A DNA stretch of 64,000 nucleotides from positions 7,748 through 71,747 of the forward strand of contig JBAYGI010000005.1 in the NCBI GenBank assembly GCA_041666745.1, written 5' to 3'. This document shows positions 3,950-61,632 of the stretch, one piece after another. Source of the stretch: Candidatus Magasanikiibacteriota bacterium (lineage in GTDB: Bacteria; Patescibacteriota; Patescibacteriia; Magasanikbacterales; GWA2-37-8). Within the stretch, counting starts at the first letter, position 1. Every line of letters begins with the position of its first letter. Below the pieces are notes generated by a model. It was given only the letters and a program-made list of their open reading frames with translations. It made no database searches and was not told where the DNA came from. Both the position numbers and the translations under genes were made by a program.

Positions 3950-3957
3950 AGAATTAA

Positions 3958-4371: not shown

Positions 4372-4388
4372 ATTATACCACTTTTTTA

Positions 4389-5021
4389 TTATTCTTCAAT
4401 TTCTTGGTCGATTAACTTTAATTGTTCCTCAGTTAAATCGTGAATTTCACACAACTGCGCCTCATCTAAATCTGGAATTATATTTACAAATGCTTTATAT
4501 ACAGAATCCTGATCACGTAAATTTTTATTATTAACAAAATTATTTTTATGTTCCAGAATCAGATCCAAAATTCTTTGTGGATATTTAACCTGATTTAATT
4601 CCAATGACGCTTGTTCGTCATCAGTTTCAATCGTAACTGAACCGTAATTTAAAATATTTGGAAGAAAACCTTTTCTGCGAACATACACATCCACAATATC
4701 ATTGAAATGTATTACGGATAAATATTCGTCGAACCAACCGACACGATTGACATTTATCAAGCGCTCTGTGGTAATAATTGAAAAATTTTTATTATTAAAA
4801 TACCAAGTGCGAAAAATAATAAATAAACCGACAAACATCGCCAGTCCGTACAGTACATATCCCCAAGCACCTTGAGAAAACAACCAAAACATAAAAAATG
4901 AAGCACCGCTCAAAAATGCAAAGCCAAATAAGTATAACCAAAAATAAGTAAAGAAGAAAGCTTTAACAATCAAAATTATTTCTTCATTTTGTCTTAAATT
5001 AATTTTTTTGGCTAGCGACAT
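4389..5021 (-). CDS. hypothetical membrane protein (two TM helices plus a cytoplasmic PH-like domain)
   Basis: 210 aa with two N-terminal hydrophobic helices. No recognisable catalytic motif. Confidence 0.35.
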   Translation of the reverse strand: MSLAKKINLRQNEEIILIVKAFFFTYFWLYLFGFAFLSGASFFMFWLFSQGAWGYVLYGLAMFVGLFIIFRTWYFNNKNFSIITTERLINVNRVGWFDEYLSVIHFNDIVDVYVRRKGFLPNILNYGSVTIETDDEQASLELNQVKYPQRILDLILEHKNNFVNNKNLRDQDSVYKAFVNIIPDLDEAQLCEIHDLTEEQLKLIDQEIEE

Positions 5022-7316: not shown

Positions 7317-9314
7317 TTATTTCTCCGGACCAACATGCACACCTATTTTTGCCCCACCGGAAATTGATTTTCCAAAATATGTCAATTCCACATAAGGCGC
7401 ATCTTTTTTGAGGGTGTATTTCTTTTTTATATCAAGCTTCAAAGCTATGTTGGTACTTTTGGCGCCAGTCATTTTCAACCAAACATAGTTGTTGTTATAT
7501 TTAGTAACTTTAAATTGAAAAGCTACTCCACTATAAATAAATGATTTGTTGGTGCAAATAGTATAAACACCATCTACCCCTTTTTCATCAGTACAACTTT
7601 CACTGTATGAATCCTGCAAAGAAGTATTGGAATCTACTTTGAACAACGCCCTACCTTCGGCTCCGACACCAATATAAGTTATAGTCAAATATTTTCCCGG
7701 CTTATTGACAACATAGAAAGTTTCCGGAGTATTTAAAACCAAGTCTGCATCTTCTTCACTCAAGCCTGCGAGCTCTACATTGGCTTCCTCACCATCATTG
7801 CTAATCACTTTTATTTTTGTTCCACTCCAATAGTGATCAATAGCAAAACCATTACAAATCAAAACATTACTATTTCCAGATTTTATATCACTACAAGCTG
7901 GCAAAGGTTTGGTGGTTGGAGAGGAAGTGGCGGTAGTGGCGTAGGAAAAATTTACATAATCAGACCACTGGCCGGTAAAGCCATTTGGAAACATTGGTAA
8001 AACTCTAACTTTAAATTGACCGTCTCCCCATAATGGCGCAGTTTGCAAAGTGTTGGAATAAGTTTTCCATTTCATAACCGCTGACCACAATGGTTGAGAA
8101 CATTTTTCACAAGCTACTTCTACTTGATATTGGTTGGCATTATCTACTTTTTTCCAAATTAAATCCACAATTCGTGGGTAGTTTGTAAGAATAGAACCAT
8201 TGTCTGGTGAAGTAATTGTGGTTTTGGCCATTTCATCAACCCACGGAGTTTTGTTATCATCACTTTTTGGTTTAGCCAAGCAAGTTCCATCCGCACAACC
8301 ATATGGACATTTGTACCACTGAGTATGAACATAATTTTTACCACTGGCAGAACTGCAATGTGTTTCAGCTATAAAATTTCCTGACACTTTATTTTTATCA
8401 CCAATATATATACCACAAGAATCAGGATACACATCATAAGCTCCGGTTAATTCATCGTTACCGGTAGCGATACCAAAAACATTGTAATTTAATTTGTCGG
8501 TTTCTGTACATTTGGCATTTGGAGTAGCAACTGGTTTAATTTTGCACGCTCCTTTAAAACAACCATAATCGCATTTGTACCACTGGTCATGAACTTTGCC
8601 ATAAGAACAATTTTTTTCATCAATATAAGCACCCTCGGATTTTCCTGAATCCCCAACATAATTTCCACAACTATCTTCAAAAGTACCTTTGGATAAACCA
8701 TTTTCTGATTGACCGGTGGCGTTACCAAATACATTGTAATCCAAGCCTTTATCACTTTCACTACAAGCTGGAGTTTCGACGGGAGTTGGAGCCGTCATTT
8801 TTAAACAAGCGCCATTTTCACAACCGTTTTCACATTTATACCACTGGGTATGCACATAGCCATTGGAACAATTACGTTCAGCTATATATGAGCCTTTTTC
8901 TTTATTTAAATCACCTACACTGGCACCACAACTATCATTTACTGTAGCTATCGAAGTTGAACCCTCAATAATACCAGTCGCCCAACTGGAAGTGTAATAA
9001 TCTAATCCACTATCGCCTTCCGTACAACTAATTTTGGTGGCGGTTGCAGAGTCATCACAAGGTTTCCAATTTACATAATATTCAGTATCTGAAGTACATT
9101 TCATGGTATAAAACTGATAACCATACTCGGTTTTTCGACAAGCGGTCGTCAAAACATAAGTAGAATTATCTCTTGTTATCTGAATATCGTTGCCAACTTG
9201 TACACATTTGGTCACAGCTACTGGATTCCCACCAACATCTGGCAAAGCATACGTAGCCACTGGCACTGCCAACAAAAAGGCAAATACCACTAACGAAAGA
9301 AAAATTTTCTTCAT
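7317..9314 (-). CDS. secreted protein with three tandem Cys-rich modules
   Basis: Signal peptide MKKIFLSLVVFAFLLAVPVATYA. Three approximately 95-aa repeats each ending WYKC(E/D/P)xGCxxGxC(L/K)…. Confidence 0.6.
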   Translation of the reverse strand: MKKIFLSLVVFAFLLAVPVATYALPDVGGNPVAVTKCVQVGNDIQITRDNSTYVLTTACRKTEYGYQFYTMKCTSDTEYYVNWKPCDDSATATKISCTEGDSGLDYYTSSWATGIIEGSTSIATVNDSCGASVGDLNKEKGSYIAERNCSNGYVHTQWYKCENGCENGACLKMTAPTPVETPACSESDKGLDYNVFGNATGQSENGLSKGTFEDSCGNYVGDSGKSEGAYIDEKNCSYGKVHDQWYKCDYGCFKGACKIKPVATPNAKCTETDKLNYNVFGIATGNDELTGAYDVYPDSCGIYIGDKNKVSGNFIAETHCSSASGKNYVHTQWYKCPYGCADGTCLAKPKSDDNKTPWVDEMAKTTITSPDNGSILTNYPRIVDLIWKKVDNANQYQVEVACEKCSQPLWSAVMKWKTYSNTLQTAPLWGDGQFKVRVLPMFPNGFTGQWSDYVNFSYATTATSSPTTKPLPACSDIKSGNSNVLICNGFAIDHYWSGTKIKVISNDGEEANVELAGLSEEDADLVLNTPETFYVVNKPGKYLTITYIGVGAEGRALFKVDSNTSLQDSYSESCTDEKGVDGVYTICTNKSFIYSGVAFQFKVTKYNNNYVWLKMTGAKSTNIALKLDIKKKYTLKKDAPYVELTYFGKSISGGAKIGVHVGPEK

Positions 9315-11920: not shown

Positions 11921-14866
11921 TTAAATACTTTGAAGTTCGATTAATAATTTTTCCATCTGTTGTTTGTCCGGATTTTTTTCAGCTGAAACCAACGCTAATT
12001 CTTGACCGATTTGTTTTCTTCTTTTTTTTGACCATTCATCTTTTATTTGCACTATCAATTCGGCCAACTCATCTTTAATCGAATCTTCTTCAATATTTTC
12101 CACCTGAATTTGGGCGATCATTTTTAAATTCTCAAAATCATCTTTGGATTCTGATTCATCAAAAAAACTTCGCCAAACTTCAACAGTATTGGCTTGGTTA
12201 GTATTATAATGTTTTTTTATGATTTCGTAAAGGTGTCCATAAAAACTCCCCTGCCAGCAACCGTCTTTTAAACCTGACCACAAAGAATTGATATATTGCG
12301 GAGAAAAAATCAAAATCATCAAAAATCTTTTTAACAACATGTCCAATCTATCCAAATCCGCCGCGCTTTTACTGTTTTCTTTATCTTTATTCTCTAGATT
12401 ATTTTTTTTGTTTTTGTCAAAACGTTTTATGTCATCTCTCAACACCGACGTGTCCGTACCCAATCTTCCCGCCAACTCTTTTAACCAGTAGTCTCTTTCG
12501 ACTGCAAACGGGATTAAATTGATAATCGGCAAAAGTTCATTGGCAATTTTTTGCTTGGCTTTTGGTTCAGAAGTATTTTTATTTAAAAAAGCCATTTCGA
12601 AAAACCAATGTAATACATCATCGGAATTTTTTACCGCCAAAAACCATACCTCCGGATTTTGTTTCAAACATTCATCGGCATCTTTTCCTTTTCCTTCCGG
12701 AATACGAATCGCTTTCACATTCAATCCCTCACCTAGAGCGATATCTATTCCGCGCTTCGCCGCTGCCACTCCGGCCGAATCACCGTCAAACGCCATGGCG
12801 ATATTGTTGGAATAGCGTTTGAGTAATTTTATTTGTTCTAGAGATAGAGCCGTACCGGAAGATGCCACCACATTTTTCATCCCCGCCTGATGACAAGCGA
12901 TCACATCCATTTGCCCCTCTACTAATACAACCAGATCCTGTGCTTTTATTTCAGTTTTGGCTTTGTCCAAACCATAGATCACTCGCGACTTGTCATAAAC
13001 CAAAGTTTGCGGTGTGTTTACATATTTTCCGCCACTATTTTCGGTCTCTACCAAAACTCGTCCGGTAAAACCAACTACATTTCCATGCACATCCCAAATC
13101 GGAAACATTATTCGTCCGCGGAAACGATCGTAAAATCCTTGTCCGGCGCGCGCCACATCTTTTTTTATTACCAAACCGGCCGCCACCAAATCATCGACTC
13201 CGATTCCTTTTTTTAAAAAATATTTTGTTAATAAATCCCACTGATCCGGGATAAAACCAATTTGCCATTTTTCGATTGTTTCTTTTTTCAAACCACGTTT
13301 TTCCAAATATTCACGCGCACCTTTGGCACCTTCCATCTCAGTCAAAATATGATGAAAAAAATAAGCCGCCTTTTGGTTGATTTCCAAAATGCGATTTTTT
13401 TGACTTTTATCTATTTCACTTCGATAGTTATCTATTTTTACCCCGGCGCGATCAGCCAATAATTTCAAAGTTTCAGGAAAATCCAGCCCCTCCATCTCTT
13501 GTACAAAAGAAAAAATATCTCCACCTTTTCCGCAATTACTAACTGCAAAATTCTCGGTCAAATACGAATGATCTTGTGATACGGTCAGATTAAAAACTGG
13601 CCCTTCAAAACTAGAACTTGTAATTTTTTTAATCGGATAGATAACAAACTTAGTCTCGCCATCCACCAGCCAATCCGTATATTTCGCTTGGACATCCTCG
13701 TACCACATTACATGGTATGACTTTTTATGATGGACTCCACGCTTATCCGTTTTTTCTTGATGTTGAAAAATACTAGGGATAATATTCAATCTCAACAATA
13801 TTTCCTTTAGTTGAAAAACTAAACTGTGTGATATCGTACTAACACTCCTATAATCAGGTCTTGATTTTTTACCACCTTTACTATTATGTCCGTCCCCTCG
13901 AAATATAGCTTCCAACAATATCCTTTGTTTACTAAAAGGCAGATACTCCCAACCATAAGGGATATGTTTATTGGCCGCGCCTTTGCCACATAAATTTTCA
14001 AAAATATTTGCTAAATTTGAATTACAACATGTTATTTCCAATCCAGTTTTTTTACCAGAACGTTTATGAATTGAAGCATTAATATTAAAAATGTTTTTAC
14101 ATAATTCAACAATATCCTGTGCGAATACCGGTTCATGACTGCCAACACTAAATCTTATATATCCACGATGATTACTACCTTCGGCTATCCAATAACCCAC
14201 TAATTTCAAAAAATCTTCGTTAATTTTTATATATTTAGGTAGCGCAAAAATCTTTTTGCCGACATTTTTTTTACCACGATTAAGATAATCAAAAAGTTTA
14301 ATTCTATTAATTTTAATTACTTTATCAACGACAGGATACAATAAATAATCATTCAATTTTAATTCGCCAGCGGAAATTTCTTCTATTTTATAACCTCTAA
14401 AAAATTTATGCGGGCAATTTTGTTTGCATTGTTTTTGGCACAATCTAGTCGCTCTTGATTTCTGTATACAATTCTTAGTTCTAACACAAAACACTTTGTG
14501 ATCATTTGTAATTTTTACTGGCATGTTTGATTTACGAATATATATTTGTCTTAACCCTCCCGAATAATTTCTAATCAGAGCACGAACAACATTGCATAAC
14601 TGTCCTTTGTGAGTATAAACAGAATCACCCACTTTAATATCCTCTATTTTGGTATGTCCACATTTAGTACGAATGAATGTTCCTGCCGGAAAACAACCAA
14701 AACATTTCCAAATTTGCTTTTCGGAATTGACCATGAAAGACGGCGTTTTTTCCTTGTGAAAAGGACACGGCGCTTTCCAATAAATGCCAGCTTTTTTGAG
14801 TGGCACATATTCTTGGATGGTCTGCACAATGTCAAGTTTTTCTTTGATGAGTTGAGTATCAGCCAT
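11921..14866 (-). CDS. dnaG: DNA primase DnaG with an in-frame intein
   Basis: Zn-ribbon CPFHKEKTPSF…KCFG, then the intein, then CGKGGDIFSFV. Primase/TOPRIM motifs follow (…VLVEGQMDVIA…AFDGDSAG…). 981 aa against about 590 aa for an intein-free DnaG. Confidence 0.85.
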   Translation of the reverse strand: MADTQLIKEKLDIVQTIQEYVPLKKAGIYWKAPCPFHKEKTPSFMVNSEKQIWKCFGCFPAGTFIRTKCGHTKIEDIKVGDSVYTHKGQLCNVVRALIRNYSGGLRQIYIRKSNMPVKITNDHKVFCVRTKNCIQKSRATRLCQKQCKQNCPHKFFRGYKIEEISAGELKLNDYLLYPVVDKVIKINRIKLFDYLNRGKKNVGKKIFALPKYIKINEDFLKLVGYWIAEGSNHRGYIRFSVGSHEPVFAQDIVELCKNIFNINASIHKRSGKKTGLEITCCNSNLANIFENLCGKGAANKHIPYGWEYLPFSKQRILLEAIFRGDGHNSKGGKKSRPDYRSVSTISHSLVFQLKEILLRLNIIPSIFQHQEKTDKRGVHHKKSYHVMWYEDVQAKYTDWLVDGETKFVIYPIKKITSSSFEGPVFNLTVSQDHSYLTENFAVSNCGKGGDIFSFVQEMEGLDFPETLKLLADRAGVKIDNYRSEIDKSQKNRILEINQKAAYFFHHILTEMEGAKGAREYLEKRGLKKETIEKWQIGFIPDQWDLLTKYFLKKGIGVDDLVAAGLVIKKDVARAGQGFYDRFRGRIMFPIWDVHGNVVGFTGRVLVETENSGGKYVNTPQTLVYDKSRVIYGLDKAKTEIKAQDLVVLVEGQMDVIACHQAGMKNVVASSGTALSLEQIKLLKRYSNNIAMAFDGDSAGVAAAKRGIDIALGEGLNVKAIRIPEGKGKDADECLKQNPEVWFLAVKNSDDVLHWFFEMAFLNKNTSEPKAKQKIANELLPIINLIPFAVERDYWLKELAGRLGTDTSVLRDDIKRFDKNKKNNLENKDKENSKSAADLDRLDMLLKRFLMILIFSPQYINSLWSGLKDGCWQGSFYGHLYEIIKKHYNTNQANTVEVWRSFFDESESKDDFENLKMIAQIQVENIEEDSIKDELAELIVQIKDEWSKKRRKQIGQELALVSAEKNPDKQQMEKLLIELQSI
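13535..14695 (-). mobile_element. intein (387 aa) with LAGLIDADG homing endonuclease, inserted in the DnaG zinc-finger CFG|CG site
   Basis: The intein begins CFPAGTFIRT… (Cys1) and ends …NFAVSN, followed by a +1 Cys. Two LAGLIDADG-like motifs are present (LVGYWIAEGSNHRGYI and LLEAIFRGDGH). The exteins rejoin as …WKCFGCGKGGD…, the canonical DnaG sequence. Confidence 0.7.
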
Positions 14867-15056
14867 ATACCATTAATTTAACACTGTTTACTATAAAAAA
14901 CAAGAGCAGGTCCAAACCAAAAACGAACGCTTAAATACTTGACAAAAGTGAGAAAAAATGATAGGTTTGGCCCATCCTCAGACGAGTGTTTGGAGGAAGT
15001 TCTGCATACCAACGCAGAATCTAGTTCCCTGACAATTCACAAGGCAGGAAAAATAC

Positions 15057-15554
15057 ATGCTTCCCAGTTTTCACTTGACCGACCTGTTCTTTTGGGTCGG
15101 ATTTCTTTTCCTTTTGCTCTTCGCGGGATACCATCTCATCATCTCCTGGCTTCGACGAGTGGATTCTTTCTCGAAGATCCAGGGAGACGTGAGTGTTGAA
15201 CGGACAATCCGTCACTTCCTGCGACCGGCCATCCTGACACTCCTAGCTATCACTGCGCTCATTTGCGTCACCATCGGCCAGGGCTCGCAGGCGAGCACGC
15301 AGAACGCCTCGCTCAATCCCGAGATGAAGGTCCGCGACGACTTCGTCAAGGCACAACAGGAGGAAGCCAAGACGGTGACCCCCAAGACTGTGCCAGCGAT
15401 GGAAGCCGAACGGAAACAGGTGGAGGAGACAAAGCGCAAACAGGCGGAGGAAGATGCGCGACGTCGCCAGGAACAGTCCGGCGAGGCGCTCAAGAACTTC
15501 CGCCAGCGAGTCATGGAGCGTGGCATCAATCCAACGGACATCACCACACCGTAG
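15057..15554 (+). CDS. membrane protein (two TM helices plus charged C-terminal tail) in GC-rich island
   Basis: 165 aa with GC3-rich codon usage (island about 60% GC against about 35% in the flanks). Two hydrophobic helices and a Glu/Lys/Arg/Gln-rich tail. Confidence 0.55.
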   Translation: MLPSFHLTDLFFWVGFLFLLLFAGYHLIISWLRRVDSFSKIQGDVSVERTIRHFLRPAILTLLAITALICVTIGQGSQASTQNASLNPEMKVRDDFVKAQQEEAKTVTPKTVPAMEAERKQVEETKRKQAEEDARRRQEQSGEALKNFRQRVMERGINPTDITTP

Positions 15555-15605
15555 CACAGAGCTTCGGTTCGGGTTTCCGTTTTTCAAGACAAGAGGAGAA
15601 TTCAG

Positions 15606-16655
15606 ATGAAGAGCTTTTCGATTCGCGCCGCAATCGCACTGATGGCGGCAATCACTCTCTCCACCCTCGCCGGCTGTGAGGGCTGTACCGGACGGGTTCC
15701 GGGCGGCTACGTCGGCATGGTCATGACCCCGAGCGGGTTTAACGGGGACATCCTTGCTCCCGGCAATCACTCCTGCTACGGCAAAGACAGGATGTACCTG
15801 CTCGAAGTGAGCGACACCCAGAAGGCCGTCGAGATCAACCAGTTGACCACCGACAAGATCAACTTCAAGGCGTCCATCGGAGTGCTTTTCTCGGTGGATC
15901 GTGGCAACAAGCAGGCGATCAAAGACGCGTTCGACAACCTCACGGCGGTGCAAACGGCCGACGCGAAGGTGTTCGTAATCTCCGCCGAGTATCTTTTCAA
16001 GACCTACGTCATGGCGATTGCGGACGAGCAGGGAAGAAAAGTATATTCAAGATACGAATCTTCAGAGGTGGTGTCCAACCGCTCGAAGATTGTCGAGGAG
16101 GTCCGAACCGGAGTCGTGACGGCCTTCCAGAACGGCCTAGTCAAGATCAAGCAGGTCACGGTCAACAACGATGACTTTCCGCACGACGTGAATATGTCTT
16201 GGGAGGCGCGTGCCAGGAAGATCATCGACACCGAGACCGAAAAGGCCGAGCAAACCCGACAACTGATCATCAAGAACAATGAGTTGGCGCTGGAGACACT
16301 CAATTACCAGATCGACTTGGTCAAGGCGGCGAACGTCGCCGACTCGAACAAGATCATCGGCTCGTCCATCACGCCCGAGTATCTGGCATACCAACAGATC
16401 AAGGTCATGGGCGACGCGGCCAAGGGTCCGAACAACTGGGGATTCATCCCCTTCACGGACTATGCCAACGGCAAGGTCAACGGTGGCCCGGCCGACCGCC
16501 TGACAAGCAAAGGTCTGGTCGACGCCGAGCTGATCAAGAGGATTCAGGATGCGCGCCAGAAAGGCGCCGACGCCAAAGCCCAACAGGACAAGGCCAAGGC
16601 ACCCACGGCACCGCCTCCCGCCGATCCTCCGGCGGCCGCTCCTGCCACTCCGTAG
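15606..16655 (+). CDS. SPFH/band-7 domain lipoprotein with Pro/Ala-rich C-terminal tail, in GC-rich island
   Basis: Strong SD AGGAGA. Signal peptide with lipobox LAGC. SPFH-like core. C-terminal …APTAPPPADPPAAAPATP. High GC3. Confidence 0.6.
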   Translation: MKSFSIRAAIALMAAITLSTLAGCEGCTGRVPGGYVGMVMTPSGFNGDILAPGNHSCYGKDRMYLLEVSDTQKAVEINQLTTDKINFKASIGVLFSVDRGNKQAIKDAFDNLTAVQTADAKVFVISAEYLFKTYVMAIADEQGRKVYSRYESSEVVSNRSKIVEEVRTGVVTAFQNGLVKIKQVTVNNDDFPHDVNMSWEARARKIIDTETEKAEQTRQLIIKNNELALETLNYQIDLVKAANVADSNKIIGSSITPEYLAYQQIKVMGDAAKGPNNWGFIPFTDYANGKVNGGPADRLTSKGLVDAELIKRIQDARQKGADAKAQQDKAKAPTAPPPADPPAAAPATP

Positions 16656-16782
16656 ATACTACACTCACCCTCGCCAGCTATCAGGCGTAAGATAGCCGAC
16701 GAAGCTCTTTCCCACCAATACGCCCGGTGACGCGTAAGCGTTCCGGTTCATCCGCCCTGTGCATTTTGTTGGCACGGGGCAA

Positions 16783-50148: not shown

Positions 50149-50541
50149 TTAATTTTTGTTAAATTTCTCGACCTTTGAGAAAAGAACCCTCCGATATTTT
50201 AATATAATAATAAAAATAAATATAAATAAAATTATGGCTGTGACCGCAAACGCGAATTGATACCAAGGAATAAATTCTGCTAGCTCGCTATAAAAATCTG
50301 TAATTAAAGAAAAATCTATTTTGATACTATCTATAAATTCGGATAAAAATGTCCACCCTTGATCGGCCAATAATTCTGTATAAAACAAATATCCAAAAAT
50401 CAACGCGCTAAATAAAAATCCACAAAACAATCCAATTAAATAATATTTTCGCTTCGCAACTTTCACAGCTTTCATAATCTCTTGGTGCATTTTGCTAGAA
50501 ACCGCTTTTTCATCATTTAAATTTTGAAACATTTCATTCAT
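50149..50541 (-). CDS. membrane protein downstream of an ECF sigma factor (putative anti-sigma factor)
   Basis: 130 aa with a short cytoplasmic N-terminus and two TM helices. Overlaps the sigma gene stop by 4 nt. Confidence 0.4.
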   Translation of the reverse strand: MNEMFQNLNDEKAVSSKMHQEIMKAVKVAKRKYYLIGLFCGFLFSALIFGYLFYTELLADQGWTFLSEFIDSIKIDFSLITDFYSELAEFIPWYQFAFAVTAIILFIFIFIIILKYRRVLFSKVEKFNKN

Positions 50542-51086
50542 AAAATATCTCCTATATATTTTTGTAATTCGATTTTAGCTCGACGTAAATTTGTTTTGAC
50601 AGTATTAATCGAAATTTTTAAAACTCCGGCGATGTCGTCGTAAGTTAGCTGGTCGCGATAATACAGAAGTAAAATATTCTGATATGCCGGCTTTACTTTT
50701 TGTAATATCCTTTCTACCAAGTCTTTGTCCTCTATCTTCTTATACGACCAACTTTCATCAATTGTTTCAAATGGATTTTCTGGGTCATCTACTATATATA
50801 ACTCCGTGCTTTTTTTGGCTTTTCTTAGTCAATCATAAACCGTGTTGGTGGCCACCGTATAAACCCAAGTTCTAAATTTATACTGTGGATCAAAAGTTTT
50901 GATGGCCCTAAAAATCTTGATAAATGTTTCCTGCGTCAAATCCTCAGCATTTTCTTTGTGTTGAATAAAACGAAAAATATGCCCAAAAACCGGCTTTTCA
51001 TACAAAAACAAGAGCTGTTCAAATGCTTTGATATCCCCTGCTTGGGCGCGAGCGATAATTTCACTTTCCGAAATATTTTCTACCAT
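50538..51086 (-). pseudogene. ECF sigma-70 family factor interrupted by an in-frame TGA (codon 50829-50831)
   Basis: The region 2 ORF (…IFRFIQHKENAEDLTQETFIKIFRAIKTFDPQYKFRTWVYTVATNTVYD*) and the region 4 ORF (…AYQNILLLYYRDQLTYDDIAGVLKISINTVKTNLRRAKIEL) are in the same frame, separated only by a TGA. Confidence 0.5.
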
Positions 51087-51218: not shown

Positions 51219-52313
51219 TCAAATTTCACTCTTTAAATCTTCCAATTTTTTACGAGCTTCGCGTGAAACTTTTTTTGGCACACGAATTTTTATTTTTACA
51301 AAATGATCGGCGCGAGTTGTTCTGCCCAAATGAGAAATTCCGTGTCCTTTCATTTTTATCAGCTGACCGGATTCTATTCCTTCGGGAATTGTCAAAGTAA
51401 CCGGACCGTCGATTGTTTCCACTTCTATTTTGTCACCAAGCACCGCTTGAGTAAAATTGATTTCGTTTTCAGTATATACATCAAAACCTTCACGATGAAA
51501 ATATTTGTTTGGTTTGATATGCGCGCGCACATAAAGATCACCACTTTGACCACCGTGCGGAGCGGCCTCACCATACCCCGACAACCGCAAAGATTCGCCG
51601 GTATTTATCCCAGCCGGAATTTTTACTTTGAGATCACTGGATTTGGCTACGATGCCATCACCACCACAATGTTTGCATTTTTTGCTTGGCCGTTCTCCCC
51701 TGCCCTGACAGGTCGGACAGGTCACGATAGCTTGCATCGTCCCCAAAAAAGTTCTTTGATTTTGCGCGACTTGTCCTTGTCCGCCACAGGTGTTGCATTT
51801 TTCCATTTTACTTCCCGGTTCACCACCGTTTCCACCACAAACATCACAAGCACTTTGTTTGCGCAAATGAATTTCTTTTTCAATACCAAAAGCCGCTTCT
51901 TTAAAATCTAATTCGACATCGACCTGGATATCACTGCCACGCTCTTGTCTGGAACTACGAGATCGTCCTCCTCCGAAAATATTTCCAAAGATATCACCGA
52001 GATCTTCACCACCAAAATCAAACTGAAAACCGCCACCTTGACCACCACGAGCCTGGCGCATAAAATCTTCCCAACTGGCACCACCACCAAAACCGCCTTG
52101 TTGTTCGAAATCCGAACCAAACTGATCGTATTTAGTACGTTTGTCAGTATCGTTAAGCACCTGATAAGCCTCATTCACCTCCTTGAATTTCTTTTCGTCA
52201 CCACCCGGACGATCCGGATGGTATTGCATGGCGGCTTTTTTGAAAGCTTTTTTGATCTCATCGGTGGTGGCATTTTTTTCTATGCCTAATATTTTGTAAT
52301 AATCTTTGGACAT
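51219..52313 (-). CDS. dnaJ: chaperone DnaJ
   Basis: J-domain with HPD, a G/F region, and four CxxCxGxG zinc-finger repeats. Confidence 0.9.
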   Translation of the reverse strand: MSKDYYKILGIEKNATTDEIKKAFKKAAMQYHPDRPGGDEKKFKEVNEAYQVLNDTDKRTKYDQFGSDFEQQGGFGGGASWEDFMRQARGGQGGGFQFDFGGEDLGDIFGNIFGGGRSRSSRQERGSDIQVDVELDFKEAAFGIEKEIHLRKQSACDVCGGNGGEPGSKMEKCNTCGGQGQVAQNQRTFLGTMQAIVTCPTCQGRGERPSKKCKHCGGDGIVAKSSDLKVKIPAGINTGESLRLSGYGEAAPHGGQSGDLYVRAHIKPNKYFHREGFDVYTENEINFTQAVLGDKIEVETIDGPVTLTIPEGIESGQLIKMKGHGISHLGRTTRADHFVKIKIRVPKKVSREARKKLEDLKSEI

Positions 52314-52316
52314 AAT

Positions 52317-52622
52317 TTATCTGCGATCTATATTTCCTTCACCGGTAATATTTTCTCTAACAAAATTATCAAATTCGGCAATTTGTTCCGGTGTGTGTTT
52401 TTTATCTTCACCCTCCCAAACATTTTTTGAATCTGTTACAATTGAGTTAATCAATATTTTTTTCTGGTCTTCACTGTCTAAATACATGTCGCCATACTCC
52501 AAAAACATACAACGACCACATATGGTATGTGAAAAACCTTCGCCTTCTATTTCCATATCTTTTTTAAATGTTCTTCCACATGTACCACATTGCACAATAG
52601 TCATATAATTTACTTTAAGCAC
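52317..52622 (-). CDS. small zinc-ribbon protein
   Basis: CGTCG…CGRC pairs. 101 aa. Sits between dnaK and dnaJ. Confidence 0.4.
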   Translation of the reverse strand: MLKVNYMTIVQCGTCGRTFKKDMEIEGEGFSHTICGRCMFLEYGDMYLDSEDQKKILINSIVTDSKNVWEGEDKKHTPEQIAEFDNFVRENITGEGNIDRR

Positions 52623-52665: not shown

Positions 52666-54582
52666 TTATTTCACTACTTCACCTTCAATTGGGCCTTTGT
52701 CATCTGTCGGTGCACCACCAGCCGGGTTTTCGCCTTGTGGAGCGTTGTCAGTTTTATTTTTGGCGTCCGTCTGTTCCTTCTGATACATTTTCATACCAAC
52801 CGCTTGAGCGGCTTTGGAAAGTTCTTCAGCGGTTTTTTTGATTGCTTCGACATCATCTTTATCTTTTACTTCTTTGACCGCTTTCAAAGTTTCTTCCACT
52901 TTGGATTTTTCTTCGGCGGTAATTTCTATTTTCTTTTCTTCCACATCTTTCATCATTTTTTCGGTAGTGTAAATCATCGAATCGGCAATATTGCGAGCTT
53001 CGATTAATTCTTGTTTTTTCTTATCTTCATCGGCATGCAACTCCGCTTCTTTTTTCATCTTTTCGATTTCTTCTTTACTCAAACCGGAAGATGATTCGAT
53101 ACGAATACTTTGTTCTTTGTTGGTACCTTTGTCTTTGGCCTTTACATTCAAAATACCATTGGCATCAATATCAAAAGTAACTTCCACCTGAGGAATACCG
53201 CGTGGCGCCATTGGAATACCATCCAAAATAAAGCGACCCAAAGATTTGTTGTCAGCGGCCATTGGACGCTCCCCTTGCAAAACATGAATTTCTACACTTG
53301 GTTGGTTGTCTGCGGCAGTAGAAAATGTTTGAGATTTGGAAGTTGGAATAGTAGTATTGCGTTCGATCAACTTAGTCATCACCGAACCCATAGTTTCGAT
53401 ACCAAAGGAAAGTGGTGTTACATCGAGCAACAACACATCTTTGACGTCACCTTTGAGCACACCACCTTGCACGGCTGCGCCCACGGCTACTACTTCATCC
53501 GGATTCACATTAATATTTGGTTTTTTACCAAAGAATTTTTCTACCATTTGTAATACCAACGGCATGCGAGTCATACCACCGACCATTACTACTTCATTGA
53601 GATCGCCAACTTTTAATTTGGCATCTTCGAGTGCTTTTTTTACCGGCTCCAAAGTTTTTTCCACCAAAGCGCCAACCAATTCTTCCAATTTGGAACGGGT
53701 TAGTTTCATTACCAAATGTTTTGGGCCATTGGCATCGGAAGTAATAAACGGCTGGTTGATTTCACTTTCTTGAGCGGTGGACAATTCGATTTTGGCTTTT
53801 TCGGCCGCTTCCTTAATACGTTGTAAAGACAACGGGTCATTGCCCAAATCAATACCTTGATCTTTTTTAAATTCATCCAAAATCCAACGAATAATCACTT
53901 GATCAAAATCATCACCACCAAGATGAGTATCTCCATTGGTGGAAAGCACCTGAACATTATCCGGCGCAACTTCGAGAATAGAGATATCAAAAGTACCGCC
54001 ACCCAAATCATAGACAGCGATTTTTTGTTCAGTCTTTTTATCAAAACCATAAGCCAAAGCGGCGGCGGTTGGTTCATTCACTATGCGCAATACTTTCAAA
54101 CCGGCAATTTCACCGGCGTCTTTGGTCGCCTGACGTTGAGAGTCGTTGAAATAAGCTGGCACGGTAATTACCGCTTCAGTAATTTTTTCACCCAAACGTT
54201 CTTCGGCATCCGCTTTCATTTTTTGCAAAATCATCGCTGAAATTTCCTGCGGACTATATTCTTTTCCTTGTAATATCACTTTCACGCCTTCGCCGGCTTT
54301 GACGATTTTGTATGGCATGAGTTTGAGATCTCGTTGTACTTCTTCGTCATTCCAACTGCGACCGATAAGACGCTTGATGGAAAACAAAGTGTTTTCCGGA
54401 TTAGTTACCGCCTGACGTTTTGCCAACTGACCAACCAAACGTTCGCCACTTTTTGAAATAGCCACGATGGATGGAGTAGTGCGAGCGCCTTCTTTATTTT
54501 CCAATACCTTTGGCTGACCACCTTCGATGATGGACATACAACTATTGGTTGTGCCGAGATCGATTCCTAATACTTTGGACAT
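52666..54582 (-). CDS. dnaK: chaperone DnaK (Hsp70)
   Basis: [16 protein letters not shown], the Hsp70 signatures. 638 aa. Confidence 0.95.
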
Positions 54583-54600
54583 ATATGTATATTCTTACCT

Positions 54601-54624
54601 GTCATTCCCACGAAAGTGGGAATC
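54601..54624. repeat. palindromic repeat element copy (GTCATTCCCACGAAAGTGGGAATC)
   Basis: 8-bp stem with GAAA loop, 19 nt upstream of the dnaK start. Confidence 0.7.
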
Positions 54625-54655
54625 CCAGAGTTATTAATTTATTTTATTTTTTATT

Positions 54656-54679
54656 GTCATTCCCGCGAAAGCGGGAATC
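54656..54679. repeat. palindromic repeat element copy (GTCATTCCCGCGAAAGCGGGAATC)
   Basis: Consensus copy in the dnaK 5' region. Confidence 0.7.
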
Positions 54680-54995
54680 TGCGATTATTGATTACTTAAA
54701 AATCAAATTCTTTTTTTCTGCCTTGAGCTTGATCTAACCAGCTGTTTTTGTAACCAATCTTATATCCTTCTTTGTAAACCAAATACATGATAAAAACGAT
54801 ACCAACTAATTTTAATGTCAATTCCATATATAAAAATAATTTAAATTTATTCATCATTTGGATTAATTTTTCTTTTAATTCGCCACACATCGTTTTGCAA
54901 ACCAATTATTCTACTTTTAATATCTACCACAAAATAGATCATTACGACTAATAAAACTGAAAGAATTAATAATAAAATATTTGTCATATATAAAA

Positions 54996-55352
54996 TTAAT
55001 TTAAATTTAAAATATAATTTTTATCAGAGACACCACCATCTTGCTTCGCCTTATCAAATCTATTAAATTCCAAAAAATGTTTTATTTCCATTAAAACATG
55101 GATAAACAATTCCCAATGCATACCAACATTAACATTGATTTGTTTTATCTTTTTTACGCAAAAATGAATATTATGAATTTTAGTTCCATGAACATCAACT
55201 ACTAAAATATATTCCCAATAACCCATTTTATTTTCAATTTCATGTATCAAAGTACAATTAATTTTATAATTATTAAATAAATAAACATACTTGCCTTTTA
55301 TAGAGGAACTCGCTGGGGATGTTATTAAATTAAAATCTTCATTTTGACTCAT
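54996..55352 (-). CDS. hypothetical protein in AT-rich insertion
   Basis: 118-aa ORF in a very AT-rich (<30% GC) block. Confidence 0.3.
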   Translation of the reverse strand: MSQNEDFNLITSPASSSIKGKYVYLFNNYKINCTLIHEIENKMGYWEYILVVDVHGTKIHNIHFCVKKIKQINVNVGMHWELFIHVLMEIKHFLEFNRFDKAKQDGGVSDKNYILNLN

Positions 55353-55358
55353 AAATTT

Positions 55359-56003
55359 TTAATTATTTTGCTTCAAAATATTCTGCATTTTATTACTAAA
55401 ACTAAAACATGTGATACCTAATAGCGAAAAAATAGATAAAACTAACAAAATTCCACTAGGTATATTGAACCCTCCGACAAATAATAAATGTAATAAAACC
55501 ACAAATATTAACAGTACGCAAGCCAAAGAAATTATCATGAGCATAGCTATTCTAAAATCTGTGTCGCTTCTAATTATATTAATATTAATTAAAATAAAAG
55601 CCAAAATAGCGGTAAAAATACCCATAATTTCTATAAAATTGATTTGTAAATTTTTGCTTTTTTCATCTATTTTTTTATCTATTTGATTTAAAAAATCTGT
55701 TTGCTCAATCTTTAATTTATTTACATCAAGAATCAATGGCGTTATTTCTTTCTGTATTATATCTCTTGTGTGTTCGTCAGCATATGTTCCTTTGTCGCTG
55801 TCTGATAATTTTGTAAAAACACATTCACCGGTTGCTGTGCATTTTAAACCATAATTTGGATTTGTAACATTAGACAGACTATATGAAGATGGTGTTGTAA
55901 TAGATGAAAATTCTATTCCTTTTGTAGTATCATTAGATTTACAACCAGCACCCATTAACATAACTACTACTACTACTAATACTGTAAAAATTTTTAATTT
56001 CAT
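55359..56003 (-). CDS. lipoprotein with two C-terminal TM helices
   Basis: Lipobox LMGAGC, a central coiled-coil-like region, and two TM helices. 214 aa. Confidence 0.45.
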   Translation of the reverse strand: MKLKIFTVLVVVVVMLMGAGCKSNDTTKGIEFSSITTPSSYSLSNVTNPNYGLKCTATGECVFTKLSDSDKGTYADEHTRDIIQKEITPLILDVNKLKIEQTDFLNQIDKKIDEKSKNLQINFIEIMGIFTAILAFILININIIRSDTDFRIAMLMIISLACVLLIFVVLLHLLFVGGFNIPSGILLVLSIFSLLGITCFSFSNKMQNILKQNN

Positions 56004-56009
56004 AAAAAA

Positions 56010-56561
56010 TTAAATTTTAATTTTTTCCAAACATTTTTTATATAATTCTTTTCCAATTTCTTTCGCTCTGTCCATCATCCGATTATACATATACTCAATT
56101 TTGAACTTTCCATTTTCTTTACCGTGATTTACTAAATATGGATCAAAATTGGAGTCAAAAAATGATAAACTATCTGCGTCCATTAAATAATTCGCATCCT
56201 CATCGCCACCCACCTCGTGTTTTTCCACCAATGTTTTTACCAGTTGAATAAACTTTTCATCAAAATTATACTTTTTTAATAATTCAGCAATAATTCTACC
56301 ACTTTCGTTTGCGTGCGCTTGTTTATATTCTTCATAATTAGAATATTTATCTCCCCACTGCCCTTCATTTATTCTGTTGGCACCATGAAAACCTCGCTCA
56401 ATATCGTGACCCAAAGCGGCGATTTGCAGGGCTTCGTCTGCGTCGGGTTTTAATTTCAACAACCATTTCAGAGTTGTTTGTGAGTGTTGTGCGTCAGTTT
56501 TAATAACCGAGTTAGTCATCAACCGTTCTATCTCCTTTTTTATTTCTTCAAAATTATTCAT
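56010..56561 (-). CDS. HD-domain phosphohydrolase-like protein
   Basis: H…ALGHDIER…D motif arrangement. 183 aa. Confidence 0.5.
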   Translation of the reverse strand: MNNFEEIKKEIERLMTNSVIKTDAQHSQTTLKWLLKLKPDADEALQIAALGHDIERGFHGANRINEGQWGDKYSNYEEYKQAHANESGRIIAELLKKYNFDEKFIQLVKTLVEKHEVGGDEDANYLMDADSLSFFDSNFDPYLVNHGKENGKFKIEYMYNRMMDRAKEIGKELYKKCLEKIKI

Positions 56562-56655
56562 ATTGCAATTTTTGTATTTTATGATATATTACATTCATCA
56601 CGATGAGAGGTTACCCGAAGGGTTCTGTCCCTAGGCTATACCTCTTTTTTTTGTT

Positions 56656-56700
56656 GTCATTCCCGCACCCGCTTCGCGAGTATAAACTCCAGCGGGGATC
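56656..56700. repeat. palindromic repeat element, expanded variant
   Basis: GTCATTCCCGC-[ACCCGCTTCGCGAGTATAAACTCCAGC]-GGGGATC, with a 27-nt insertion in the loop. Confidence 0.5.
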
Positions 56701-56707
56701 TTTTTAT

Positions 56708-56998
56708 TTAAAATGGTTTTAACGTTGGATAAAGATCGTTCCACTCTGGATTATCTTTTTCTATCAATTCTGTTTTCCATTTTCTATTCCACTTTTTAAT
56801 TTGTTTTTCTCTGGTTATGGCATTTCTTACATCGTCATATTGTTCGTAATAAACTAAATTGTGAATGTGATATTTTTGGGTGAAACCTTCTATTGTCTCT
56901 TGTTTGTGTTCGTGGATTCTTCTTAATAGATTATTTGTCACACCTACATACAATACGCCATTTTTCTGGTTGGATAATATGTAGATGTAATAAGTCAT
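56708..56998 (-). CDS. standalone GIY-YIG nuclease family protein
   Basis: MTYYIYILSNQKNGVLYVGVTNNLLRRIHEHKQ carries the GIY…YVG and R/E/N motif arrangement. 96 aa. Confidence 0.75.
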   Translation of the reverse strand: MTYYIYILSNQKNGVLYVGVTNNLLRRIHEHKQETIEGFTQKYHIHNLVYYEQYDDVRNAITREKQIKKWNRKWKTELIEKDNPEWNDLYPTLKPF

Positions 56999-57010
56999 AG
57001 CCCCCTCTTA

Positions 57011-57125
57011 GATCCCCGTTTTCACGGGGATGACAATTGATTAGATTCCCATTTACATGGGAATGACAATGTTTATTAGATTCCCGCTTTCGCGGGAATG
57101 ACACAATTTTATTTATTAGAATGAC
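57011..57125. repeat. tandem cluster of three and a half palindromic repeat copies (reverse orientation) upstream of the GIY-YIG gene
   Basis: GATCCCCGTTTTCACGGGGATGAC (57011-57034), GATTCCCATTTACATGGGAATGAC (57044-57067), GATTCCCGCTTTCGCGGGAATGAC (57079-57102), and partial GAATGAC (57119-57125). Stem positions covary. Confidence 0.7.
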
Positions 57126-57139
57126 AAATTAAAAATAAA

Positions 57140-57574
57140 TTATTTTGTCTTTTTTGTAATTTTTATTTCTACTTTTTTTGGTTCGGCTGTTTTGGTTTTT
57201 GGACAAGTGATTTTCAGTATTCCATCTTCAAAACTAGCTTCTACATCATTTTCCAATACCACTGTCGGCAAAGCTATCTGACGGTAAAAAGCACCACTGC
57301 GAACTTCTTTGCGATAATAATTTTTTTCTTCAATCTCATGTTCTTTGTGATTTTCACCTTGTAAAGTGAGCACACCGTTTTCTACACTCACTTTCACGTC
57401 TTCCGGGTTGAATCCGGCCAAAGGTGTTTCCACCACCACCGCCTTATCTGTTTCATAAACATCCACCGCCGGTGTAAAAGCTTTCATGGTTGAATTTACG
57501 GCCGGCAGACGATTGAAAGCTTCGTCTACTTGATCAAATGGATCCCACATTGGAGACCAACGAATTAATGACAT
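57140..57574 (-). CDS. Hsp20/alpha-crystallin small heat-shock protein
   Basis: 144 aa with the alpha-crystallin domain (…AFTPAVDVYETDKAVVVETPLAGFNPEDVKVSVENGVLTLQGE…). Confidence 0.8.
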   Translation of the reverse strand: MSLIRWSPMWDPFDQVDEAFNRLPAVNSTMKAFTPAVDVYETDKAVVVETPLAGFNPEDVKVSVENGVLTLQGENHKEHEIEEKNYYRKEVRSGAFYRQIALPTVVLENDVEASFEDGILKITCPKTKTAEPKKVEIKITKKTK

Positions 57575-57607
57575 ATATATTTTTTATTAATTGATTTAAT
57601 TTAAATG

Positions 57608-57631
57608 GATTCCCGCTTTCGCGGGAATGAC
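57608..57631. repeat. palindromic repeat element copy in the hsp20 5' region
   Basis: GATTCCCGCTTTCGCGGGAATGAC. Confidence 0.7.
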
Positions 57632-57633
57632 AA

Positions 57634-58203
57634 TCACTTCGTGATTATCACTTTTGCTACTTTTACTATTTTATTTCCCATTTTATAACCTCCAGACACC
57701 TCTTTGATTATTTCGCCAGTTTCTTTTCCTTCCATTTCCTCCTCGCCTACACTTTCGTGCATAGCGGGATCAAATTTTTCACCAACTGTTTTTATTTCTT
57801 CAATACCATGACTTTTCAAAACATCTCCAAACTGTTTCATGATATATCCGATACCATCTGTCCAACTTTTTATTTGTTTGTGTTCTTCGTTGTCTGGTTG
57901 TAAAACCGGGTGGTGGAAAAAAGCGGTTTTGAAATTTTCATATACTGGAATAAAATCCTCCAAAATCATCACTTTACTCATTTGCGCCCATTCACCGCGA
58001 CGCTCACTGGTTTCTTTTTGTAAATTTTTGTAATCCGCCAAAGCGCGTTGCCAATCTTTTTTATATTCTTCCGCTTTGTTGTTATTTTCTTCGCAATTTT
58101 TACATTTCTTATTAAAAAACTTTGATTTTTCTTTTATATCTTCGCTCGGAATGACAACTTCTTCGTCTGGTTTTTCTTCTAATGGTTTTTGATCATCACT
58201 CAT
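57634..58203 (-). CDS. grpE: nucleotide exchange factor GrpE
   Basis: N-terminal coiled coil and C-terminal GrpE beta-domain. 189 aa. Confidence 0.8.
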   Translation of the reverse strand: MSDDQKPLEEKPDEEVVIPSEDIKEKSKFFNKKCKNCEENNNKAEEYKKDWQRALADYKNLQKETSERRGEWAQMSKVMILEDFIPVYENFKTAFFHHPVLQPDNEEHKQIKSWTDGIGYIMKQFGDVLKSHGIEEIKTVGEKFDPAMHESVGEEEMEGKETGEIIKEVSGGYKMGNKIVKVAKVIITK

Positions 58204-58204: not shown

Positions 58205-58885
58205 TTATTTTGTTAAAATAGTTTTTACCATTTCTAAAAGTGTATAATTGCGTTTGTAGTTGGTGCGTAATGGAGATAATAAAGTAACCAGACTGTTGCC
58301 AAATTTAAACGACGTGGCAGACAGCATACTTCCAAACGGATGTTCGTCACCAATAAAAATTTTTATTTCTTCAGATACTAAATTATAAAATTCCGGAATA
58401 CAATCTTCACATCGATCAAACACCTGTGAAATATCCCCTACCACACCAAGCTCTACAAATTCCGGCTTGGAAAATAAATTGGATAATCCGGTGTAATAAA
58501 TAGAATTTGGTGAAAAAGCAAAAATCACTGTTTCTTGAGTAATCACCGCCAACGATTTTGATAAATTTTTCTGAGCCTGAATTTTGTCTTCCAGAGCAAA
58601 AAAACTTTCCAAAGCATCTGCTTCTTTTTTGTTAATTTTTAATTTATCCCATTCTATTTTTTCCAAATAATATTTATAACCCTTTTCGGTAGGAATACGA
58701 CCGGCACTGGTATGAGGATGAGTAAGATAACCCACTTCCTCAAGCTCGCGAAGTTCATTGCGTACAGTAGCTTCACTCAAATCCAGCTCGGCATCCGATA
58801 CCAAAAACTTAGACCCGATTGGTTGGGCGGTATCAATGTATTTTTCAATAACCAAGGTGAGTAGTTGTTCTTGACGAGGGTTCAT
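58205..58885 (-). CDS. hrcA: heat-inducible transcription repressor HrcA (start revised to ATG 58885; the track ORF extends to a TTG at 58927 that lies inside the promoter spacer)
   Basis: MNPRQEQLLTLVIEKYIDTAQPIGSKFL…, the HrcA N-terminal wHTH. The CIRCE operator sits immediately upstream. Confidence 0.8.
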   Translation of the reverse strand: MNPRQEQLLTLVIEKYIDTAQPIGSKFLVSDAELDLSEATVRNELRELEEVGYLTHPHTSAGRIPTEKGYKYYLEKIEWDKLKINKKEADALESFFALEDKIQAQKNLSKSLAVITQETVIFAFSPNSIYYTGLSNLFSKPEFVELGVVGDISQVFDRCEDCIPEFYNLVSEEIKIFIGDEHPFGSMLSATSFKFGNSLVTLLSPLRTNYKRNYTLLEMVKTILTK

Positions 58886-58886
58886 A

Positions 58887-58940
58887 TTAGCACTCAAACT
58901 ATACGAGTGATAATATACCACCCCCAAAATTAGCTGTCAA
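58887..58940 (-). promoter_or_regulatory. sigma-70-type promoter (TTGACA-17-TATATT) overlapped by a CIRCE inverted repeat
   Basis: On the minus strand: TTGACAgctaattttgggggtggTATATTATCACTCgtatagtttGAGTGCTAA. The CIRCE consensus TTAGCACTC-N9-GAGTGCTAA is matched with one mismatch. Confidence 0.6.
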
Positions 58941-58949: not shown

Positions 58950-59278
58950 CTTATCCACACGCGTTCGGGCTGGACTATTGCTAAAAATCCCAAACCATGC
59001 TTTAATATGGCCTATCTGCGACTGGAATGAATGGAGGCTCACAAGTGTCCAACCTAGACGCTTTTGCGCTTATGGAGCGGTACCACTTTGTCCGGCGGCA
59101 CCATGACAGAACGCGCAAGACTCTAGGTTATACTGGAGTACAACGATTCTTACCCAGTAGACAGATCCTGGACGGTTCCATGTTACTTCACGCGTCTGTC
59201 AGGCGCGAAAAAGTACGGGGACCGTCCAGGCCCCCATACTAAAATCAAAATACCAACTAAATTAGTTGGTATTTTTTT
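58950..59278 (+). ncRNA. candidate structured RNA or foreign fragment: about 300-nt block of about 52% GC ending in a hairpin terminator
   Basis: GC content is well above the flanks. Multiple GC helices (e.g. GGACGGTTCC…GGGGACCGTCC). Terminator ACCAACTAAATTAGTTGGTATTTTTTT at 59248-59278. The only ORF (59027..59242) looks spurious. Confidence 0.3.
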
Positions 59279-59280
59279 TA

Positions 59281-59304
59281 GATCCCCGTTTTCACGGGGA
59301 TGAC
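59281..59304. repeat. palindromic repeat element copy plus two 3' partial copies (59318-59326, 59340-59348)
   Basis: GATCCCCGTTTTCACGGGGATGAC, then GGGAATGAC and GGGGATGAC fragments. Confidence 0.65.
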
Positions 59305-59353
59305 AATTCTTTATGTTGGGAATGACATTTCTTTATTTTGGGGATGACATTTG

Positions 59354-61597: not shown

Positions 61598-61621
61598 GAT
61601 TCCCGCCTTCGCGGGAATGAC
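61598..61621. repeat. palindromic repeat element copy in the 5' leader of the ABC-F gene
   Basis: GATTCCCGCCTTCGCGGGAATGAC, between an extended -10 TGGTATAAT (61573-61581) and the start codon at 61633. Confidence 0.65.
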
Positions 61622-61632
61622 ATGATAAAAAT

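Follow-up and report, generated by a model that had tools for sequence, protein, structure and literature searches.

The interval examined here lies in a 64 kb stretch of Candidatus Magasanikiibacteriota contig JBAYGI010000005.1 (the window), where 2,557 bp (54583-57139) separate dnaK from hsp20 within the heat-shock cluster and every gene is on the minus strand. It encodes a 96-aa GIY-YIG protein, identified below by sequence as a homolog of the site-specific nuclease SsnA of Neisseria, a stand-alone HD-domain protein of the DUF4202 family, and four small AT-rich open reading frames (ORFs), p214, p118, p46 and p69, together with a series of hairpin repeats. The same DNA belongs to a metagenomic contig of 80 kb (ENA ERZ27249449, k141_294892), and the relatives of its GrpE assign it to Candidatus Magasanikbacteria, within the Patescibacteria. 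An earlier account made from the letters alone (the sequence-only reading) had described about 2.5 kb of very low GC DNA interrupting the heat-shock region, and this holds, as the two 2-kb windows covering the block have the lowest G+C in all 64 kb. The genes that it listed are present as well, and one was missing from its list, the 46-aa ORF p46, which has a single transmembrane (TM) segment. The genes of the block and of the surrounding cluster are as follows.

58205-58927, minus strand: hrcA
57634-58203, minus strand: grpE
57140-57574, minus strand: hsp20
56708-56998, minus strand: ssnA, 96-aa single-domain GIY-YIG protein, homolog of the Neisseria site-specific single-stranded DNA (ssDNA) nuclease
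56010-56561, minus strand: HD gene, DUF4202 / HD-domain metal-dependent phosphohydrolase with a YpgQ-like fold
55359-56003, minus strand: p214, signal peptide, lipobox-like MGAGC and about three C-terminal TM segments
54996-55352, minus strand: p118, soluble and predicted to be beta-rich
54847-54987, minus strand: p46, small single-TM peptide
54696-54905, minus strand: p69, small single-TM peptide, called as 64 aa in the source contig
52666-54582, minus strand: dnaK
52317-52622, minus strand: 101-aa ORF in the dnaK/dnaJ spacer
51219-52313, minus strand: dnaJ

The composition of the block is uneven. G+C is 0.23-0.27 across 54600-56000, compared with 0.384 for the whole window, and the strong deviation is restricted to p214-p69 (0.23-0.26), where the G+C at third codon positions (GC3) of p214, p118 and p46 is about 0.19 against about 0.30-0.37 in the neighbors. 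The very low GC ascribed earlier to the entire block therefore applies to these four genes and not to ssnA (0.30) or the HD gene (0.335), both of which are close to the G+C of neighboring genes. The p214-p118-p46-p69 genes are spaced by 6-8 bp or overlap, an arrangement that would fit one transcription unit shared with the HD gene. A consensus promoter and terminator scan was uninformative, with 15 promoter-like sites where 18 were expected and no terminators.

The GIY-YIG nuclease and its hairpin repeats

The Ssn system was described in Neisseria, where the repeat NTS, CGTCATTCCCGCGMAVGCGGGAATCYRG, is bound only as ssDNA by SsnA, a 94-aa single-domain GIY-YIG protein that cuts a few nucleotides upstream of it (Chenal et al., Nat Commun 2025, PMC11893778). 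In Neisseria meningitidis the SsnA/NTS pair restricts transformation by NTS-flanked DNA, and mutation of Y6, Y17 or E64 abolishes cleavage; in Neisseria, NTS clusters surround membrane-protein genes (PMC11893778). Homologs of SsnA are found across phyla, flanked by "Ssn-related motifs" (SRMs), for which the degenerate motif HGTCWYN(0-2)YYVSBRHN(0-5)WNVSBRGN(0-2)RNCYNB was given (PMC11893778). In the CDD the family corresponds to cd10448 (GIY-YIG_unchar_3), as distinct from cd10456 (UPF0213). The terms "Patescibacteria" and "candidate phyla" are absent from the main text of that paper.

The window protein matches PF01541 (7e-16) over residues 3-75 and no other Pfam domain. For comparison, the Neisseria counterpart was drawn from two complete N. 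gonorrhoeae chromosomes (2.17 Mb), which are filed as plasmids in PLSDB. One of these, NZ_CP119140.1, has a 94-aa ORF amid nine canonical NTS copies. This ORF aligns with the window protein over 90 residues without gaps, at 51% identity (BLASTP 2e-36; tblastn 1e-25 in 7.3 Gb), and carries no annotation in the PLSDB table. With this gonococcal ORF as reference, the window protein falls within the published Ssn threshold of E < 1e-10 to Neisseria SsnA, and Y6, Y17 and E64 are found at identical positions. Matches to the solved UPF0213 proteins (1zg2, 1ywl) are weak (E 0.004-0.014), which fits a different subfamily. Because of the identity to the gonococcal ORF, the three retained residues and the NTS-like repeats that flank the gene, the GIY-YIG gene is named ssnA and its repeats are taken, on this sequence comparison, to be SRMs.

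The repeat, TGTCATTCCCGCGAAAGCGGGAATC, is present in two copies on the dnaK side (54600 and 54655, plus strand) and in three tandem copies beside ssnA (57010, 57043 and 57079, minus strand), and the outermost pair forms a perfect 26-nt inverted repeat (54655-54680 / 57078-57103). Searched as a 25-mer with up to 3 mismatches, it occurs 5 times, compared with 0 in 100 shuffles. A census of the whole window by a hairpin-aware pattern scan raised the number to eight perfect short copies (54601, 54656, 57012, 57045, 57080, 57609, 59282 and 61599), one long-loop variant (56655-56700) and half-copies at 57118, 59319 and 59341. All of these are confined to 54.6-61.6 kb, with none in the other 54 kb of the window. 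The sequence-only reading had the repeats bounding the block; the two dnaK-side and three ssnA-side copies are indeed there, but further copies lie inside (56655) and outside (57608, 59282, 61598). The copies, together with a distinct hairpin next to the long-loop variant, are listed here.

54600-54624, plus strand: SRM copy with the stem variant CCCACG/CGTGGG and the conserved 5' TGTC, 17 nt before the dnaK start codon
54655-54680, plus strand: canonical SRM copy, fitting the published degenerate motif
56598-56650, no strand assigned: imperfect hairpin motif of about 50 nt between ssnA and the HD gene, terminator-like (hairpin and T-run) on the plus strand
56655-56700, plus strand: SRM variant with a long loop, just past the stop codon of ssnA, between ssnA and the HD gene
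57010-57035, 57043-57068 and 57078-57103, minus strand: three SRM copies in tandem, immediately upstream of ssnA, with a half-copy at 57118
57608-57632, minus strand: SRM copy outside the block, in the spacer of hsp20 and grpE
59278-59306, minus strand: SRM copy in the band7/hrcA spacer, of the variant seen at 57010, with two half-copies ahead of it
61598-61622, minus strand: SRM copy between a band-7 gene and an ABC-F gene

The short copies share an 8-bp stem and a 4-nt loop, with folding energies of -6.6 to -9.0 kcal/mol (z -3.1 to -5.0). Across ten aligned copies the stem positions are paired in every case, and the changes at three of the eight pairs are fully compensatory. The 5' TGTCAT flank is invariant in the same alignment and, being non-palindromic, gives each copy an orientation, which is plus on the dnaK side of ssnA and minus on the hsp20 side. 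The repeat is almost identical to the NTS consensus, and the published degenerate motif has three strict matches in the window (54655, 57605 and 61595), where 100 shuffles averaged 0.07; another five perfect hairpin copies fall outside that expression. SRM hairpins thus stand on both sides of ssnA, with three copies 12-105 bp upstream and the long variant 8 bp downstream.

Rfam searches of 54.3-58.3 kb, 58.85-59.4 kb and the whole window returned no riboswitch and no small RNA (sRNA). Each SRM copy gave a sub-threshold match to the Rfam family FtrB (Francisella sRNA B), at 54628-54712, 57032-57127, 57575-57651 and 59240-59328, because the FtrB consensus contains the same GUCAUUCCCGCG..CGCGGGAAUC hairpin; this family may include an Ssn-related repeat.

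The association of gene and repeat was followed in 80 metagenome loci that encode homologs 58-86% identical to the 96-aa protein. The core GTCATTCC is found upstream of the ssnA homolog in 70 of the 79 evaluable loci, at a median distance of 45 bp, and its complement downstream in 61 of 75 (median 28 bp), so that 53 of 74 loci have the core on both sides. The background, measured more than 600 bp away from the homologs, is 0.135 cores per kb. These loci represent at least 58 distinct flank contexts with G+C ranging from 0.26 to 0.62, and the HD, p214 and p118 genes are found in none of the 80. Since the core hugs ssnA in the homolog loci, the repeats belong to the nuclease gene rather than to the 2.5-kb block. 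One locus (L023) has two ssnA copies, at 3850-4450 and 8050-8275, 4.2 kb apart on one contig. They were considered as evidence of transposition and rejected, as their 97.8% identity runs into the upstream flank, indicating a segmental duplication.

The pair found here resembles the Neisseria system in its single-domain GIY-YIG protein of about 95 aa, with the 51% identity and the residues Y6, Y17 and E64 noted above, and in a near-identical repeat with a directional 5' flank. In both cases repeats flank the gene on both sides and cluster in nearby intergenic spacers beside membrane-protein genes. There are also differences: the host belongs to the candidate phyla radiation (CPR; Magasanikbacteria), about nine SRM copies are seen in the window, all within 7 kb, and the orientation of the repeats flips exactly at ssnA, whereas that of the gonococcal locus is mixed. 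A wider analogy, made by the same authors, is with repetitive extragenic palindromic (REP) sequences and their mosaic elements (BIMEs) served by REP-associated tyrosine transposases (RAYTs) of the IS200/IS605 type (PMC11893778). There, too, a small nuclease gene lies between inverted hairpin repeats, ssDNA is thought to be the substrate and repeats are scattered in spacers, although the nuclease fold in the window is GIY-YIG and not HUH.

The remaining genes and the slot in relatives

The HD protein belongs to DUF4202 (PF13875; 5.6e-22, 78.9 bits against a gathering cutoff of 35.1) and also matches the HD family of Pfam. The metal ligands H26, H52-D53, H83, H115 and D130 are invariant or nearly so in 55 homologs, and an AlphaFold2 model built on these has an HD fold with a predicted local distance difference test score (pLDDT) of 94.8, so score, ligands and fold all place it in the family. 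Solved stand-alone HD phosphohydrolases of the YpgQ / 2pq7 type belong to the same class at an identity of only 17-21%, and the likeliest role of the window protein is that of a YpgQ-type nucleotide pyrophosphohydrolase or phosphatase. Its 845 homologs come mainly from CPR bacteria and DPANN archaea. The four contexts that were inspected are all different (an intein-containing gyrA; a nucleotidyltransferase; a glyoxalase with an acetyltransferase; a deaminase), and neither ssnA nor a p214-like gene is present in any of them. There is no demonstrable functional link between the HD protein and ssnA. A full-text literature search found no papers on DUF4202, nor on GIY-YIG together with "repetitive extragenic palindromic".

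The four AT-rich genes have few or no relatives. p214 has an N-terminal signal peptide with the lipobox-like MGAGC and, by hydropathy, about three C-terminal TM segments, where the sequence-only reading had a lipoprotein with two; its central polar stretch looks coiled-coil-like by eye. A word-indexed search of 5.8 billion proteins returned p214 itself alone and nothing for p118, and an exhaustive HMMER search of 1.8 billion cluster representatives found a single p118 homolog, P0002, at 48% identity. No relative of either was found in IMG/VR, no homolog of p69 was found in the window or the fetched loci, and none of the four matches Pfam. Against PADLOC, PHROGs and NCBIfam, the only matches of the six block proteins were generic ones to GIY-YIG and HD, apart from PHROG matches of p214 (E 4e-4) that are weak, of unknown function and fall on hydrophobic, low-complexity stretches. 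The AlphaFold2 model of p118, made without an alignment, is unusable (pLDDT 49).

The same interval was compared in relatives by searching related genome loci with the window proteins (tblastn). The hrcA-grpE-hsp20 and dnaK-dnaJ parts are kept in all of them, and the hsp20-dnaK spacer differs almost everywhere:

L007: gap of 22 bp, empty
L012: gap of 34 bp, empty
L004 and L009: queF
L006: yhhQ (Vut_1) and queF
L008: yhhQ, queF and a gene for a 144-aa membrane protein
L010: NYN-domain gene and a gene for a 167-aa membrane protein
L011: 4.1 kb with NUDIX and methyltransferase genes

The sequence-only reading had suggested looking for relatives with dnaK directly beside hsp20, and L007 and L012 are such cases. 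The empty site of L007 reads hsp20-TAA, TTAATATATACACAT, dnaK ATG, and its last dozen bases are common to the window. Given these empty sites, the block is a genuine lineage-specific insertion. Identical synteny of the same five genes, which would have argued for ancestral housekeeping genes, was found in no compared relative.

Parts of the block do occur at this site without the others. The tail of L005, a contig of a metagenome-assembled genome, is overlapped by L020, and the joined order is hsp20-yhhQ-queF-SRM-ssnA (86% identity)-55-aa TM ORF-SRM-41-aa lipoprotein-like ORF-dnaK, with no HD, p214 or p118 gene. In L102 and L103, on the other hand, the closest DUF4202 homolog (58% identity) lies 25 bp upstream of dnaK, and ssnA, SRMs and p214-p69 are all missing; L103 comes from the window's own sample. 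Relatives that have no close ssnA homolog also have no SRMs in the 5-20 kb sampled per locus; in L010 the only GIY-YIG protein is 38% identical and encoded about 5 kb upstream.

Variability is also found elsewhere in the cluster. A 3.9-kb insertion in L005 (219-4097) lies between the band-7 gene and hrcA, so that variable slots are present on both sides of the heat-shock cluster. Within it, the dnaK/dnaJ spacer is a second variable slot in the same operon: the 101-aa ORF at 52317-52622 (minus strand) has zinc-ribbon-like CxxC...CxxC motifs, and relatives have about 520 bp at this place with no detectable homolog. The loci L005, L008 and L009 are titled "uncultured Gammaproteobacteria bacterium", and their heat-shock cluster shows 73-98% protein identity to the Magasanikbacteria one; these taxonomic labels look wrong.

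A probable mosaic slot and its alternatives

Taken together, the block is probably a variable slot that has collected an SRM-ssnA-SRM module, with further SRMs in the spacers, a DUF4202 hydrolase and a run of AT-rich envelope genes. The hsp20-dnaK interval, a hyper-variable slot in the heat-shock cluster of Magasanikbacteria, would accordingly hold a mosaic of three modules and not one element. Module 1 (56655-57103) is the nuclease gene between its cognate hairpin repeats, and the dnaK-side repeats and the copies at 57.6, 59.3 and 61.6 kb are members of the same family scattered in the spacers around ssnA. By analogy with the N. meningitidis enzyme, SsnA is expected to bind the hairpin of one repeat strand in ssDNA and to nick a few nucleotides 5' of it, leaving double-stranded DNA and RNA untouched. 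With such a specificity for an ssDNA hairpin, the protein would act on ssDNA intermediates such as transforming DNA, and may thereby modulate the recombination of repeat-flanked genes. Module 2 is the stand-alone DUF4202 phosphohydrolase. Module 3 (p214-p118-p46-p69) is a tightly packed, very AT-rich group of genes, whose products are a polytopic membrane protein resembling a lipoprotein, a soluble protein and a pair of single-TM peptides; these are likeliest to be recently acquired or fast-evolving cell-envelope genes.

Several points weigh against this interpretation. The N. gonorrhoeae ORF counts as the SsnA ortholog on account of its length and of the NTS copies around it, the cleavage specificity is extrapolated from the Neisseria and Wolbachia enzymes, and both the membership of the window protein in cd10448 and the envelope role of p214-p69 are putative. 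A composite element would also fit the perfect 26-nt inverted pair at the two ends of the block, and the DUF4202 gene present at the slot in two lineages, at 58% identity, may reflect either descent or independent capture.

The composite element is the reading to which the sequence-only account had pointed, with a repeat-flanked mobile island: the whole 2.5 kb would be one mobile unit, the repeats its terminal inverted repeats, the GIY-YIG protein its mobilizing enzyme and the other genes cargo. The plus-strand copies on the left and minus-strand copies on the right, with the perfect 26-nt pair, agree with it, as do the empty sites in relatives, the low G+C of the block and a 2,383-bp contig from another sample that breaks at about the repeat positions. 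So does L100, the contig with the only p118 homolog, which starts at the 56.6-kb hairpin and ends in SRMs. This reading is nevertheless very unlikely, as repeats also lie inside (56655) and outside (57608, 59282, 61598) the block, inverted repeats enclose ssnA alone in 53 of the 74 homolog loci as a unit of about 400 bp, and ssnA and the HD gene each occupy the slot without the others. The modules differ in G+C, no target-site duplication is visible by eye at the outer repeats (flanks TTCTTACC and CAATTTTA), the ORF list and Pfam show no transposase or integrase nearby, and ARAGORN detected neither a tRNA nor a tmRNA as a potential integration site.

A more restricted proposal sees in the AT-rich part what is left of a prophage or plasmid, for example a lysis-type cassette with small TM peptides and a lipoprotein. 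It draws on the GC3 of about 0.19, on the small TM peptides and lipoprotein-like protein encoded, on the weak PHROG matches of p214 and on the presence of the 56.6-kb hairpin in one IMG/VR contig. This proposal is highly improbable, since p214 and p118 lack relatives in IMG/VR, genes for structural proteins, integrase or lysin are missing from the block, and the p214 matches fall on low-complexity sequence; the best PHROG matches of the block proteins are weak ones to generic GIY-YIG homing endonucleases. Defence-type cargo, also suggested earlier, would make the block an anti-phage system of nuclease, HD hydrolase and membrane effectors. The gene mix is superficially like that of defence islands, the site is variable among relatives and an NYN-domain gene occupies it in L010. 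When the defence-profile search proposed with that suggestion was run (PADLOC-DB v2), however, five proteins had no match and the GIY-YIG protein only three at chance level (E 0.007-0.012, 12-14 bits). With ssnA accompanied by HD, p214 or p118 in none of 80 loci, with the inspected DUF4202 contexts being housekeeping-like and free of ssnA or p214-like genes, and with other occupants of the slot being metabolic (queF, yhhQ), an anti-phage system is extremely unlikely.

The variable slot built of separable modules thus remains the preferred reading, and it can be extended, as an unlikely possibility, to cassette exchange between CPR genomes at the hsp20-dnaK slot and perhaps at other SRM-marked spacers. 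The SRMs and the 56.6-kb hairpin would then delimit the swapped cassettes, and ssDNA nicking by SsnA would promote or police the exchange. The hairpin at 56598-56650 ends in CCTCTCATCGTGA, is terminator-like on the opposite strand, and recurs at positions 1-30 of L100 and in a viral IMG/VR contig (L110, 5005-5050), with a T-A to C-G compensatory change in the stem seen by eye. The idea of exchange arose because L100 shares the hairpin, a p118 homolog and SRMs with the window, with different companion genes, the cargo of the slot varies, and the repeat orientation flips at ssnA. In the "minimal mobile elements" of Neisseria, the genes on either side are conserved and the cassette between them varies, often with dRS3 repeats close by. 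The slot resembles them in its conserved hsp20 and dnaK flanks, in cargo that is different in almost every relative and in the lack of a mobility gene; exchange by transformation and homologous recombination is a feature of the Neisseria elements.

These results remove a false lead, as a system published in 2025 accounts for the nuclease and its repeats, and no support is seen for a new island of the defence or mobile type. The nuclease and repeat part is a CPR instance of the already known Ssn/SRM kind, and the rest is an ordinary accessory region. Reduced CPR genomes depend on DNA uptake, and an ssDNA-specific nuclease with its sites could matter for gene flow in such a genome. A slot whose cargo changes in nearly every relative offers a compact natural test bed for whether SRMs mark recombination or drive it. 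In addition, candidate enzyme/site pairs for the ssDNA tools that have been proposed for the Ssn family are provided by the window protein and the 80 close homologs with their cognate repeats.

Other features of the window

Between the terminator of the band-7 gene and hrcA there is an unannotated, GC-rich (about 45%) stretch of about 270 nt (58975-59240, minus strand), where the spacer of most relatives measures between some tens and about 200 bp. Its RNA fold is better than that of all 200 shuffles (z -3.5), and it matches no Rfam family; it may be a new non-coding RNA or a remnant. A segment at 15000-16700 has a G+C of 0.54, compared with 0.38 for the genome, and holds two plus-strand ORFs of 165 and 349 aa, the latter lipoprotein-like with a Pro/Ala-rich tail by eye. 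It is not rRNA, the Rfam content of the window being five tRNAs only, and was probably acquired from a high-GC donor.

Two further genes appear to be interrupted or split. The DnaG primase ORF (11921-14866, minus strand; 981 aa) has, by eye, a putative intein-like insertion with a LAGLIDADG-type motif. At 50538-51086 (minus strand) an ECF-type sigma factor is seemingly split into an 85-aa ORF with Sigma70_r2 and a 60-aa ORF that looks region-4-like by eye, which could be a frameshift or a pseudogene.

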